From Cupriavidus necator (GTDB taxonomy: Bacteria; Pseudomonadota; Gammaproteobacteria; Burkholderiales; Burkholderiaceae): DNA of 32,000 nucleotides. Shown here piece after piece: positions 2,967-32,000 of the stretch. The first letter of the stretch is position 1, and every line of letters begins with the position of its first letter. Position numbers and translations under genes: made by a program. The stretch covers positions 1,260,001-1,292,000 of the forward strand of contig NZ_CP066018.1 of assembly GCF_016127575.1 (NCBI RefSeq), given 5' to 3'. Under the pieces are notes generated by a model that saw only the letters and a list, made by a program, of their open reading frames with translations, had not been told where the DNA came from and made no database searches.

Positions 2967-4160
2967 TTAGTGCAGCAGCCCGCCGGGTGCGGCCATGGTA
3001 GCGGCAGCGGGCGCTTCGGTCACGGCTTCGATCATGCCAGGCCAGCGCAGCGCGGCCGGCACGGCATGGGCCGCGGGATCGCCCTTGAGCAGCGCGCCAA
3101 CCACCGCGCACGCGGCCTCGGTCACCGCCGGCGCAATCAGAAAGCCATGCCGGTACAAGCCGTTGACGCGCACCACGCGCGCGCGCTGGTCCACGCGGAT
3201 CGCCGGCAGGTGGTCGGGCCGCGTCGGGCGCCGCTGCACGTTCAGTTCCAGCACGCGGGCCTCGCCGAAGGCGGGATGCAGTGAATGCGCCGCCGACAGC
3301 AGCTCCAGCGCGGAACGCACGCTCATGGGCGAATCATCCTCGCTTTCCAGCTCGGTGGCACCGATCACGTACAGGTCGTTGGGCTTGGGCGCGATATAGA
3401 TCGGGTAGCGCGGATGCAGCAGCCGCACCGGCCGATGCAGCCTGACGTCGGGCGCATGCACGCGCACCACTTCGCCGCGCAGGCCGCGCAGGCCCGGCTT
3501 GTCGCCGCCCGGCTGTGCGGGCCAGGCCGAGCGCGCGCCCAGGCCGCGGCAATCCAGCACCACGTCGGCACGGATGCCGAGCTTGGGCAGCGATTCGGCA
3601 TCGACCTCGCCAGCCTCCCAGACGCAATGCACGCCTTCGCTGACCGCGCACGACAACAGCGCGCGCAGCGCGCCACGGTTGTCGAGCTGGCCTTCGCCGG
3701 CCAGCAGCAGGCCCTGCGGGAAGCGGCCCGCCAGCGCGGGCTCGACTTCGCCCACGCCCTTGCCGTCCAGCGCGCGCAGCCGCTGCGACACCAGTTCGGG
3801 CGGCGCCACCGCGCGCACGCGGCTGGTGAACAGCGACATCTCGGCACGGTCGCGCGCATGCCAGACCACCAGCGTGCCGTCCTCCTGGAAGAAGACCGGC
3901 TCAGGCAATTCGGCCAGCCACGCGCGCCACAGGTCGACACTGGCGATGCCCAGGTCGACGATGCGGCGCTCGGCGATGGCCGATTCCGCCAGCGGCGCCA
4001 GCATGGCCGCAGCCACATAGGCGGCCGAGCCCGCGCCGTCCGGACCGGCCCGCTCCACCAGCGCCACGCGGGCGCCGCTGCGTACCAGTTGCCAGGCGGC
4101 CAGGCGCCCGGCAAGACCGGCCCCGAGAATGGCGACGTCAAACGACTGCACTGCTGTCAT
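2967..4160 (-). CDS. thiO: FAD-dependent glycine oxidase ThiO
   Basis: The FAD Rossmann motif DVAILGAGLAGR begins 12 residues after the ATG at 4160. Amino-acid oxidase family in a thi operon context. The ORF-track start at 4292 would add 44 R/P/A-rich residues that span two strong hairpins, so I treat that stretch as non-coding. Confidence 0.8.
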   Translation of the reverse strand: MTAVQSFDVAILGAGLAGRLAAWQLVRSGARVALVERAGPDGAGSAAYVAAAMLAPLAESAIAERRIVDLGIASVDLWRAWLAELPEPVFFQEDGTLVVWHARDRAEMSLFTSRVRAVAPPELVSQRLRALDGKGVGEVEPALAGRFPQGLLLAGEGQLDNRGALRALLSCAVSEGVHCVWEAGEVDAESLPKLGIRADVVLDCRGLGARSAWPAQPGGDKPGLRGLRGEVVRVHAPDVRLHRPVRLLHPRYPIYIAPKPNDLYVIGATELESEDDSPMSVRSALELLSAAHSLHPAFGEARVLELNVQRRPTRPDHLPAIRVDQRARVVRVNGLYRHGFLIAPAVTEAACAVVGALLKGDPAAHAVPAALRWPGMIEAVTEAPAAATMAAPGGLLH

Positions 4161-4296: not shown

Positions 4297-6372
<2,076 letters not shown>

Positions 6373-6577
6373 TCATCCAACGGGGTGAATTTAAGCACAA
6401 GGTGCCGGTGGGCGCCAGTGCCAGTTCCCTGCCGTTTGTGGTGCCACACCTGTTCGAAAAGGTATCGAATCGCGCATGCTGCAGCGCAATAATCACTCAC
6501 AAGGGGACAACCGCGCACTCAAACGCCGGCGACGTGCTCTACCATGCAGTAAGACGCGTCCATCTTCCGATCCCGCC

Positions 6578-12786: not shown

Positions 12787-13950
<1,164 letters not shown>

Positions 13951-14001
13951 GAACTTATTCTCCAGGTTGGCTATTGCGTGCCAGCCCGATCAGTTCATGG
14001 C

Positions 14002-14090
14002 GGCGACGCTTTAGCGGTATTTCAAGCAGCCCGGTTAGAGCCGCATCGCCCCGCAAGTTGTCAGTTAACTCGGCGATACACGCTATTATA
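14002..14090 (-). promoter_or_regulatory. metK promoter -10 box plus a structured 5' leader motif shared with metX (candidate riboswitch)
   Basis: In order on the minus strand: TATAAT (14090..14085); P1 AUCGCC/GGCGAU (14077..14072 / 14050..14045) closing a 21-nt loop GAGUUAACUGACAACUUGCGG; hairpin GCGGCUC-UAACC-GGGCUGC; the block AAAUACCGCUAAAG (14022..14009); and GUCGCC (14007..14002), which mimics the P1 5' strand. The same order and spacing occur in the metX leader. Confidence 0.55.
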
Positions 14091-14281
14091 CGCGCCTGCC
14101 GGGCTCGTTGCAGCGCGCCAACGGTACGGTACGGCACCCTGCCAACCAGCCGGGGGCACCGTGCCCAGATGAATCCGATGACGGCACGCTGCGCGCGGAA
14201 CTGAATACCGCCATAGAAAAAACGCTGCCTGCCCGTCTGTTCCCCGGCACAGACCCGTAGCAGACCCGCTTTTCGCGCCTG

Positions 14282-15178
14282 ATGACCTTTTTGTTCTGGC
14301 TGATCTCCCGTTTTCCCCTGCGGCTGCTGCAAGCCGCGGGCGGCGCGCTCGGACTGCTGAGCGCGCGCCTGCCCGGCCGCTACGGCCAGCGCCTGCGGGA
14401 GAACTTCCGCCAGGCGTTTCCCGACGCCACCGATGCGATGATCGACGAAGCGGCCCGTTCGGCCGGACGCATGATCGTCGAGATGCCCTACTTCTGGAGC
14501 CGCAGCAAGATCGGTGCGAAGCTGCATGGCTTTGACGACTACCTGTGGCCCGAGCTGGGCAAGCTGCAGGCGCGCGGCAAGGGCATCATCATCCTGACCC
14601 CGCACCTGGGCTGCTTTGAAGTGCTGCCGCAGTCCCACGCGCTGCAGCGCCCGGTCACCGCCCTGTTCAAGCCGCCGCACCAGCCCTGGCTGCGCGACTG
14701 GATTGAAAAAATGCGCACCCGGCCCGGCATGCACATGGCGCCGGCCACGCCGCGCGGTGTGCGCATGCTGGTGAAGGCACTCAAGCGCGGCCAGGCGGTG
14801 GGCATCCTGCCCGACCAGGTGCCCAGCGGCGGCGAGGGCAACTGGGCGCCGTTCTTCGGCAAGCCGGCCTATACCATGGCACTGGTGCACCGGCTGCAGC
14901 AGCTGACCGGCGCGCCGGTGGTGGCGGTCTTTGCCGAGCGCCTGCCGCGCGGCGCCGGCTATCGCGGCCACCTGCGCGTGATCAACGACGGCGGCATGCT
15001 GCCGGACGATCCTGCCGCCGCTGCCGCGGTCATCAACCGGACTATCGAGGAACTGGTGGGCCTGTGCCCCACGCAGTACCTGTGGGCTTACAACCGCTAC
15101 AAGCAACCCGCCGGAGCGGGTACCCCGGACGCGCCGGGCAATGATACCGAGCCGGCCACTGATCGATCGATTTCATGA
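14282..15178 (+). CDS. lipid A biosynthesis late acyltransferase (LpxL/LpxM/HtrB family), copy 1
   Basis: 298 aa with an N-terminal membrane anchor and the HX4E acyltransferase motif (TPHLGCFE). Its stop overlaps the start of copy 2 by ATGA. Confidence 0.8.
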   Translation: MTFLFWLISRFPLRLLQAAGGALGLLSARLPGRYGQRLRENFRQAFPDATDAMIDEAARSAGRMIVEMPYFWSRSKIGAKLHGFDDYLWPELGKLQARGKGIIILTPHLGCFEVLPQSHALQRPVTALFKPPHQPWLRDWIEKMRTRPGMHMAPATPRGVRMLVKALKRGQAVGILPDQVPSGGEGNWAPFFGKPAYTMALVHRLQQLTGAPVVAVFAERLPRGAGYRGHLRVINDGGMLPDDPAAAAAVINRTIEELVGLCPTQYLWAYNRYKQPAGAGTPDAPGNDTEPATDRSIS

Positions 15179-30933: not shown

Positions 30934-30960
30934 GGAATCCGGCCCGTGGCGAACGGGCAT

Positions 30961-31009
30961 AAAAAAACCCGACCGGCATTTGCGTATAAAGCGTCGCAGC
31001 CAAGTCGGG
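30961..31009 (-). terminator. intrinsic terminator/attenuator inside the metX 5' leader
   Basis: The minus strand reads CCCGACU...GGUCGGG (7 bp including one G-U, large loop) followed by UUUUUUU, ending 1 nt before the first in-frame ATG of metX. Confidence 0.6.
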
Positions 31010-31070: not shown

Positions 31071-31182
31071 GGCGCCGACCCAACCTCTTTAGCCGCATTT
31101 GTAGTGGCAACCCGGAACTTGGTCCCTTGGCTGCCGCGCGCCCGCAAGCCAGTCATCAAATCGGCGCGACCGGGCAATTATA
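31071..31182 (-). promoter_or_regulatory. metX promoter -10 box plus a structured 5' leader motif shared with metK (candidate riboswitch aptamer)
   Basis: In order on the minus strand: TATAAT (31182..31177); P1 CGCGCC/GGCGCG (31168..31163 / 31142..31137) closing the loop GAUUUGAUGACUGGCUUGCG; an extended hairpin GGCAGCC..GGGAC-CAA-GUUCC..GGUUGCC; AAAUGCGGCUAAAG (31100..31087); and the P1-5' mimic GCGCC (31075..31071). Confidence 0.55.
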
Positions 31183-31208
31183 GAGCAATCGGCCCGGCAT
31201 GTTGATTT

Positions 31209-31388
31209 AGAACCCATTTCACATTGAAGATGGGCACGCGTTCAAGCCAGGCGCGGCGCAGGCTAGGCGCGGGCCGCCGGCCTTGGTCATTCCAAGGTCA
31301 AGGCCCGTAACGACGCATGCGCCGCGCCTGGCTTGAACCCGAAGGGAAGGCTGCTGCCGGGCCCCTTCTTCATTGTGAAATGGGTTCT
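31209..31388. repeat. 180-bp nested imperfect inverted repeat between the slmA stop and the metX promoter
   Basis: Outer arms 31209..31235 / 31361..31388 pair at 24 of 27 positions. Inner arms 31240..31260 / 31318..31338 are a perfect 21-bp inverted repeat (GTTCAAGCCAGGCGCGGCGCA). The 57-nt centre contains a further CCTTGG-N5-CCAAGG hairpin. Confidence 0.8.
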
Positions 31389-32000
31389 TAACCCAGCAAG
31401 ACCCTCAGGTGCGCCTCGGCATGGTCCGACGGCGACTTGCGGAAGCCGCTCTTGGCATAGCGGTGCCACTGGCCCTGCACCGCCGCCATGATCAGCGCCG
31501 CGCGTGCGGGAATATCGGCATCCGCCGGGAACGCGGCCTGCGTCACCGCCATCTTCAGGCACTGGCGCAGCGAGGCCTCGATGCGGTCCACCACCTGGTT
31601 GATGCGCTCCTGCAGGCGTTCGTGCTCGCCCACCAGCGCCTCGCCGGTCAGCACGCGCGTCATGCCAGGGTTCTTCTCGGCAAACGACAGCAGCATGCGC
31701 ACAATGGCGTGGGCCTGGCGCAGGCCGTGCTCTTCCTTGTCGGTGATCTGGTTGATCAGGCCGAACACGGTCTGCTCGATAAAGCCGATCAGGCCCTCGT
31801 ACATCTGCGCCTTGCTGGCGAAATGGCGGTACAGCGCCGCCTCCGACACGCTCAGGCGCGCGGCCAGCGCCGCCGTTGTGATCTTCTCCCCGCGCGGGTG
31901 CTCCAGCATGGTGGCCAGGGTCTGCAGGATCTGCACGCGGCGCTCGCCCGGGCGCGGGCGCTTGCGCGCCGGCGTGGCCGGCGGCTGGCCTCCGTCCTGC
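31388..32000 (-). CDS. slmA: nucleoid occlusion factor SlmA (TetR family), 5' end beyond the right edge
   Basis: The frame is open to position 32000 (..KRPRPGERRVQILQTLATMLE..). Strong similarity to recalled E. coli SlmA (ITTA.LA..VSEAALYRHF.SK, NPG.TR.LTG.AL, RINQ...RIEA.LRQ). TAA stop at 31388..31390. Confidence 0.85.
   Translation of the reverse strand, partial: QDGGQPPATPARKRPRPGERRVQILQTLATMLEHPRGEKITTAALAARLSVSEAALYRHFASKAQMYEGLIGFIEQTVFGLINQITDKEEHGLRQAHAIVRMLLSFAEKNPGMTRVLTGEALVGEHERLQERINQVVDRIEASLRQCLKMAVTQAAFPADADIPARAALIMAAVQGQWHRYAKSGFRKSPSDHAEAHLRVLLG

Follow-up and report, generated by a model that had tools for sequence, protein, structure and literature searches.

A predicted pseudoknotted RNA conserved in the metK leaders of Burkholderiales, probably a diverged SAM-II-class aptamer

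The window that we analysed is a stretch of 32,000 nt from the genome of Cupriavidus necator. It contains, on the minus strand, a metK gene for S-adenosylmethionine synthetase, the enzyme whose product is the main methyl donor of the cell. The gene begins at a GUG codon that opens a 387-aa ORF, and its product is 99% identical to the MetK of Cupriavidus oxalaticus. The leader in front of this gene, whose elements had been noted in an initial annotation of the same DNA, is the subject of the present work. The elements to which the text refers are listed below from upstream to downstream with respect to metK; all pairings in the list are predicted ones, with the kind of evidence given for each element.

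14282-15178 (+): lipid A acyltransferase gene, the divergently oriented upstream neighbour
14090-14085 (-): -10 hexamer TATAAT, followed by a 7-nt spacer to P1 (read from the sequence)
14077-14072 (-): AUCGCC, 5′ strand of P1, pairing with 14045-14050 (three P1 pairs covary)
14071-14051 (-): P1 loop of 21 nt, GAGUUAACUGACAACUUGCGG (read from the sequence)
14066..14071 (-): L1, GAGUUA, counterpart of the SAM-II L1 GAUUUG (leader alignments)
14063-14060 (-): UGAC, 5′ strand of the distal pseudoknot helix, pairing with GUCG 14007-14004 (covariation)
14057-14051 (-): CUUGCGG, 5′ strand of the pseudoknot, with UU in P2b and GCGG in P2a (P2a covariation)
14050-14045 (-): GGCGAU, 3′ strand of P1 (covariation)
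14044-14026 (-): hairpin GCGGCUC-UAACC-GGGCUGC inserted in L3 (lineage-variable, optional)
14022-14009 (-): AAAUACCGCUAAAG, the A-rich end of L3 and then the 3′ strand of the pseudoknot, in which CCGC 14017-14014 belongs to P2a, U14013 is unpaired (equivalent of U44 of SAM-II) and AA 14012-14011 belongs to P2b (covariation, invariance)
14009-14002 (-): switch strand C, GCGUCGCC, contributing GUCG 14007-14004 to the distal helix as its 3′ strand, and complementary to D over its whole length
14007-14002 (-): GUCGCC (read from the sequence)
13946..14001 (-): start-sequestering fold (minimum-energy folds)
13983-13968 (-): D hairpin, UGGC-ACGCAAUA-GCCA, to which D supplies the 5′ stem and the loop
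13982-13976 (-): element D, GGCACGC, complementary to C over 7 bp with C14005 bulged
13963-13960 (-): GGAG, the Shine-Dalgarno (SD) sequence (read from the sequence)
13950-13948 (-): GUG start codon
12787..13950 (-): metK, the regulated gene (Pfam S-AdoMet_synt N, M and C at E = 1e-42 to 2e-68)

When the minus strand was read again, every leader element was found where the initial annotation had placed it. On the 3′ side of the L3 hairpin the order is UUGAAAUA, then CCGCUAAAG (14017-14009), then CGUCGCC (14008-14002), after which a stretch of about 50 nt, containing the GGAG and ending at the GUG, leads from the aptamer to the gene. The statement that no terminator follows the metK aptamer was confirmed: nothing terminator-like lies within 13900-14300, and in this region no G+C-rich stem with a U tract was found between the aptamer and the start codon. 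Upstream of P1, a TANNNT hexamer is present in 63 of 71 homologous leaders and ends there 5-9 nt (mostly 6-7) before the helix, whereas neither a -35 match nor a full sigma-70 promoter was found in the metK leader. Given the fixed distance between the -10 hexamer and P1 in these leaders, the metK transcript very probably starts at the foot of P1.

The covariance and covariation analysis that the initial annotation had suggested was run on 80 MetK loci, gathered with one genome per species. A covariance model, named R1, was built from 30 metK leaders with a short linker, all from other species, the sequence of the window being excluded. R1 matched the window at 14000-14079 (-) with 46.1 bits (E = 7.6e-13), and this was its sole significant match in the 32 kb, the next-best one having E = 0.28. 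Among the 80 Burkholderiales-type metK loci there was a match in 73, every time upstream of metK; the seven loci with no match to R1 include those of Usitatibacter and Methylobacillus. The Burkholderiales comprise, among other genera, Burkholderia, Bordetella, Achromobacter, Ralstonia and Cupriavidus, and in nearly all leaders of the order in our set the block lies 60-125 nt from the start codon. It is found in the Burkholderiaceae (Cupriavidus, Ralstonia, Paraburkholderia and Trinickia), in the Comamonadaceae and the Roseateles/Aquabacterium/Methylibium group, in the Alcaligenaceae (Bordetella, Achromobacter, Castellaniella and Pusillimonas) and in the Oxalobacteraceae (Undibacterium and Duganella), with the consensus [rUCGCy] GAGUUA..GA(A)C-wA-CUUGCrG [GGCGAy] – linker – yyGCUAAAGCGU(U)CGCC.

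To evaluate the pairings we used an alignment of 65 distinct leaders from which the variable linker had been removed. A standard pair is present in 98.7% of the cells of the proposed pairs, compared with 33-52% after a shift of the partners by 1-3 columns, and seven pairs change on both sides. The observed pairing score was reached by 0 of 500 shuffles, a count that is not a probability, since with related sequences shuffle-based statistics overstate independence. The varying pairs of P1 are GC37/AU20/UA3/CG1/UG1, UA57/CG7 and CG43/UG17/UA3, and those of P2a (GCrG/CyGC, corresponding to the GCGG/CCGC of the initial annotation), which are never unpaired, are GC33/AU29/GU3 and GC60/AU4/GU1. A distal helix was newly found, in which UGAC, three nt 5′ of CUUGC in the loop, pairs with GUCG 14007-14004; its varying pairs are AU60/GU5, AU39/GC23/GU3 and GC41/CG9/UG6/UA1. 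Covariation supports all the three helices that are testable in this way (P1, P2a and distal), while the UU/AA part (P2b) is invariant and hence beyond its reach. Moreover, G-U pairs occur in the metK sense only (e.g. UG 17 times in P1) and, as they would be A-C on the opposite strand, they fix the sense of the RNA as the metK direction.

As judged from these alignments, the metK leader element is a real and widely conserved pseudoknotted RNA. Precisely, it is predicted to fold as an H-type pseudoknot in which P1 (AUCGCC/GGCGAU) would be joined by the tail CCGC-U-AA...GUCG pairing back into the P1 loop, and the resulting helices would be P2a (GCGG/CCGC), P2b (UU/AA) and the distal UGAC/GUCG, with L1 (GAGUUA) running along P2b. 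Of the 7-bp pseudoknot that had been proposed for this leader, the four GCGG/CCGC pairs are secure, as they covary, but the remaining CUU/AAG pairing with its UA bulge is disfavoured. Only the first base of CUUGC ever varies, 3 of the 65 leaders having A there, and this change argues against the C-G pair of that register. The register is probably shifted by one nt, with U14055-A14012 and U14056-A14011 paired and U14013 alone unpaired, as is favoured by homology to the SAM-II crystal structure and by the distal helix, which is in register with the crystal pairing. A conserved alternative hairpin between L1 (GAGUU) and AACUU was also considered and rejected: positions 10 and 19 do not covary, and A19 stands with G10 in three leaders.

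The L3 hairpin (14044-14026) is missing from 31 of 71 leaders. The distance from CUUGC to GCUAAAG is accordingly of two kinds, 23-27 nt in 31 leaders and 35-143 nt in the other 40, and one or two unrelated hairpins, up to ~120 nt, can stand in its place. In relatives within Cupriavidus its stem is preserved through compensatory changes (e.g. GCCGCUC/GAGUGGC in L003). Model R1 handles this hairpin as an insertion and, on the strength of the leader comparison, it is a lineage-variable and dispensable one.

We then considered the class of the element. The Rfam gathering scan of the window returned a TPP riboswitch only, and the metK leader of the window had no match to the SAM-II family (RF00521) at E ≤ 10, which we attribute to the hairpin of 18-19 nt inserted in L3. 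None of 20 metK loci passed the RF00521 gathering threshold of 36 bits. Nevertheless, the short-linker metK leader L038 aligned to RF00521 from end to end, with 19.6 bits (E = 0.014; threshold 36), and in the Rfam alignment its GAGUUA is placed on GAUUUG. Among the metX leaders, the short-linker L157 passes RF00521 (38.9 vs 36 bits) and is itself matched by R1 at 32.4 bits, as are four other short-linker metX leaders at 27-38 bits. Since R1 matches these leaders and L157 passes the curated model, significant profile matches connect curated SAM-II with both the metX and the metK type.

With SAM-II (RF00521, 2QWY) the metK element shares the H-type pseudoknot whose 3′ tail enters the P1 loop, the core of invariant CUUGC and GCUAAAG in which one U alone is unpaired, a U-containing L1 right after P1, an A-rich L3, the methionine/SAM gene context and a distal pseudoknot helix leading into the expression platform. 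As to this last feature, the distal part of the SAM-II pseudoknot is known to connect to the platform (PMC2258182), and in the metK leaders the 3′ strand of the covarying distal helix is also part of an alternative helix between C and D. The metK type differs from SAM-II in reaching at most 19.6 bits against a threshold of 36, in its L1 (GAGUUA, not GAUUUG), in having AA or UA, not GG, before CUUGC, in a P2a of four covarying pairs against about two, and in a platform that we propose to be translational and not a terminator. It also precedes metK in Burkholderiales, whereas the published SAM-II regulons are metX, metY, metA and hom (PMC4239095).

Our main reading, to which we give a probability of about 0.7, is that the metK element is a SAM-II-class aptamer of a diverged metK subtype that senses SAM to lower metK translation; in this assignment the Rfam threshold is taken as an operational, not a structural, criterion for membership of SAM-II. 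The class itself is already known; it is the metK subtype that goes undetected by the standard model of Rfam 15. The initial proposal of a riboswitch-type aptamer with a pseudoknot, lying at the 5′ terminus of the metK transcript and akin to the element before metX, is supported by the covariation, by the -10 spacing and by the profile links.

The ligand site can be compared with the crystal structure 2QWY, in which U21 and G22 sandwich the SAM adenine, the otherwise unpaired U44 pairs with it, P2b consists of U20-A46 and U21-A45, U10 contacts U44 and U12 contacts A46, U10, U11 and U12 line the P2b groove, and the carbonyls of U11 and U21 form the sulfonium site (PMC3303485). The counterparts of this core in the metK leader are UU|GC at 14056-14053, U14013, AA at 14012-14011 and the L1 uridines 14068-14067 (for U11 and U12), all of them invariant; GCUAAAGCGU and UUGC are invariant in the 65 distinct leaders and align to the same positions of the RF00521 model. 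SAM would bind as in SAM-II, with its adenine stacked between U14055 and G14054 and paired with U14013. S-adenosylmethionine is thus the inferred ligand, on the grounds of homology to SAM-II and of the metK gene context.

One position adjoining the ligand is different. The counterpart of U10 is a G in nearly all metK leaders (GAGUUA) and a U in the metX type (GAUUUG). This leads to an alternative that we hold to be improbable, namely that the SAM-II fold is retained with a changed ligand preference or affinity (SAH, SAM plus SAH, or a higher SAM threshold) brought about by the U-to-G change in L1 and the longer P2a. The change separates nearly all the 65 distinct metK leaders from all those of the metX type, the U10 of SAM-II contacts the U44 that pairs with the ligand adenine (PMC3303485), and other metK riboswitches, such as the SAM/SAH one in Rhodobacterales, discriminate poorly (named in PMC4239095); however, the equivalents of U11 and U21 at the sulfonium site and the rest of the core are invariant, and metK is a classic target of SAM-sensing OFF switches.

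Very unlikely, in our opinion, is that there is no ligand sensor at all and that the leader binds a protein, acts as a DNA operator, or is a stable 5′ structure that sets the half-life or the basal translation of the metK mRNA. Such a reading draws on the fact that SAM binding is argued from homology and gene context, and on the folding predictions, in which the start codon is constitutively buried. Nevertheless, strand-specific compensatory changes in three helices, the pseudoknot included, indicate a folded RNA, those of its unpaired positions that never vary fall on the binding core of SAM-II, and through the profiles it is linked to a sequence scoring above the curated SAM-II threshold.

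Other known classes were compared with the SAM-II-class reading. RF01057, RF01727, RF01826 and RF01726 had no match at E ≤ 10 in 13900-14200. The SAM-II long-loop (RF01726) and SAM-V (RF01826) families are likewise variants of the SAM-II architecture that the original model had missed (PMC2864571; PMC5473149), but they match neither the metK nor the metX leader of the window at E ≤ 10 and were reported from Bacteroidetes and marine samples, not from Burkholderiales metK leaders. Like the metK element, the SAM/SAH riboswitch (RF01727) is an H-type pseudoknot of small size, and in its proteobacterial order it controls the translation of metK; it differs in its lineage (Rhodobacterales) and consensus, and has no Rfam match in the window leader. 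The positive control of the scan was an SAH riboswitch (RF01057) at 3641-3714 (+) of the Duganella locus L080, found with 60.3 bits about 1 kb downstream of metK. Together with the metK aptamer this gives two different SAM-cycle riboswitches in the metK neighbourhood of Duganella.

For the expression platform we considered the stretch between the aptamer and the gene. The best duplex partner of the tail within the window is D (-15.9 kcal/mol), and C:D is present in the minimum-energy fold of transcripts cut just 3′ of D in 59 of 70 leaders, compared with 25% when D is shuffled. The versions of C and D in the different lineages are still complementary (GCGUUCGCC/GGCAACGC, GCGUCGCC/GGCACGC, GUCGCAG/CUGCGAC and GUCACCG/CGGUGGC). 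In the minimum-energy fold of the window leader an outer helix, GCCAUGAACU (14001-13992) with AGUUCGUGGC (13955-13946), covers the GUG, and an inner helix, UCGGG/CCUGG, around the D hairpin covers half of the GGAG. The unpaired probability of the start codon of the window is 0.00, against 0.27 in shuffled leaders, and across the leaders the values for real and shuffled sequences are 0.17 vs 0.31 for the SD and 0.36 vs 0.47 for the start codon.

The mechanism that we propose, at a lower confidence than the aptamer itself, is that C would be shared between the distal pseudoknot helix and the alternative hairpin with D. With SAM absent, the C:D hairpin would form upon transcription and delay the folding over the ribosome site, so that metK would be translated. 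With SAM present, the pseudoknot would hold the GUCG of C and block C:D, D would fold into its own hairpin, and the surrounding helices would bury the GUG and part of the GGAG, with less metK translation; Rho-dependent or degradative loss of the untranslated metK mRNA might follow. In this way the element would probably allow metK to be turned off at times of abundant S-adenosylmethionine. A simple thermodynamic switch is unsupported: in equilibrium folding with the aptamer constrained to its bound form or not, the mean access was 0.20 vs 0.18 for the SD and 0.37 vs 0.39 for the TIR, and the ribosome site is predicted to be buried in both states. As no thermodynamic switch is visible, the ON state would have to be a kinetic trap, and the modelled switch is probably kinetic rather than at equilibrium. 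Some lineages show a stretch of U residues downstream of the D hairpin (e.g. L006, L009, L019 and L037), and there the same logic would give termination.

The initial annotation had given GUCGCC a different task, the replacement of the P1 5′ strand. Such pairing is possible in all leaders (4-6 bp), but it leaves the access to the ribosome site unchanged, and GUCGCC makes more sense as 3′ strand both of the distal helix and of the alternative helix with GGCACGC; as a candidate, the replacement was rejected for being weak in Oxalobacteraceae and of no predicted effect on the ribosome site. We hence consider it rather unlikely that the aptamer is as described above and the control is exerted by P1 strand exchange (GUCGCC with GGCGAU when SAM is absent) or mainly by Rho-dependent termination. 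The P1 3′ strand can pair with the tail over 4-6 bp in 71 of 71 leaders, the window leader, folded to minimum energy without constraints, contains this pairing, and in L007 a G-to-A change of the tail is matched by a C-to-U change in the P1 3′ strand. However, in Oxalobacteraceae only 4 bp form, in a different register, the predicted access to the SD and the start is unchanged, and the complementarity is to be expected regardless, given that the tail resembles the P1 5′ strand. As for Rho, a loading site would have to fit into the ~50 untranslated nt after the aptamer, a short stretch for this purpose.

The C strand of Comamonadaceae and Oxalobacteraceae shows complementarity to the region of the start codon as well, and the C of GUG-start leaders matches the start in 9 of 9, though these may be one clade. 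Full pairing of C with the start and the distal helix are mutually exclusive, which complicates the switch logic. At the loci L008-L077 (Comamonadaceae and relatives), CGUUCGCC after the aptamer is the exact complement of AUG-GCG-AAC-G, and the GAAC of the aptamer loop copies the Asn codon; this complementarity gives one strand three alternative partners, i.e. the aptamer loop, the decoy hairpin and the start region. There is a small chance that in function the metK type forms a SAM-II subclass of its own, e.g. one sensing SAH or SAM/SAH, with a set-point unlike that of the metX copy and with a three-way competition for the strand. As part of that same doubtful reading, and with no greater likelihood, the competitors would be the distal helix, the decoy hairpin and the start-codon region, not a simple occlusion of the SD.

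A D-type hairpin, GGC(A)ACGC, lies 20-50 nt downstream of the aptamer at the loci L001-L080; its stem covaries, and its loop (AACGC among Comamonadaceae, ACGCAAUA in Cupriavidus) is highly conserved. The loop is conserved beyond what a decoy needs and may have a further role.

The second element of this kind in the window is in front of metX:

31082..31168 (-): SAM-II aptamer of the metX/metW leader, with a hairpin inserted in L3 (partial RF00521 matches)

In this leader RF00521 found the P1 hairpin with 19.8 bits (E = 0.022) and the 3′ tail with 10.6 bits, and R1 gave 6.5 and 5.2 bits only. A terminator-like stem with U7 follows at 31009-30961. The register of the distal helix is common to the metX and metK types, and covariation is seen for it among the metX leaders as well. 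Leyn et al. 2014 described a new 'metXZ' element in beta-proteobacteria, with one element per genome, and McCown et al. 2017 identified the metXZ elements as canonical SAM-II (PMC5473149); SAM-II with terminators had already been seen in beta-proteobacteria by Barrick and Breaker 2007. The metX copy of the window is this metXZ element, hence a canonical-type SAM-II that is already known. It shares the fold, the L3 insertion site and the distal-helix register with the metK copy, from which it differs by the canonical GAUUUG L1, a 2-bp P2a and the terminator-like stem with U7. The idea of one aptamer with two expression platforms thus stands as to the platforms, which do differ (stem and U7 at metX, no terminator at metK), but the aptamers are two diverged subtypes of one class.

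Some metX leaders (L128, L130, L133, L136, L145 and L156) have an extra 11-13 nt (GAUUUGAAUGGUUACUCAACCUCAGCUUGC) between L1 and CUUGC, so that in some metX-type aptamers insertions occur at two sites, in L3 and in the P1 loop. At 30960-30967 of the window, the U7 tract belonging to the metX terminator abuts the ATG listed as the ORF start (30960), and most MetX relatives align from residue 9-29 onward only. The true metX start is hence probably further downstream than 30960.

The regulator of metK in beta-proteobacteria was stated to be unknown by Leyn et al. 2014, whose own search was unsuccessful, and no earlier description of a metK-associated SAM-II in beta-proteobacteria was found in the open-access literature. 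If our main reading is true, a diverged SAM-II riboswitch would fill this gap in metK regulation across at least five families, and Rfam-based annotation would miss the metK subtype systematically, the metK covariance model being ready for re-annotation. One genome would then hold two SAM-II subtypes with different read-outs, termination at metX and translation at metK, a natural system for how one aptamer fold gets re-tuned. The metK finding overturns nothing that is established.

Two other features of the window were observed. The TPP riboswitch (RF00059) is at 6278-6379 (-), with 70.3 bits and E = 4e-12, directly upstream of thiC (4297-6267(-), ThiC radical SAM family), which is an ordinary arrangement. 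Between a SlmA-like TetR gene and the metX promoter, at 31206-31391, there are two nested inverted repeats, one with 29-nt arms that are 90% complementary and one with 27-nt arms that are 93% complementary; possible readings of them are a bidirectional terminator and a REP/MITE-like element.
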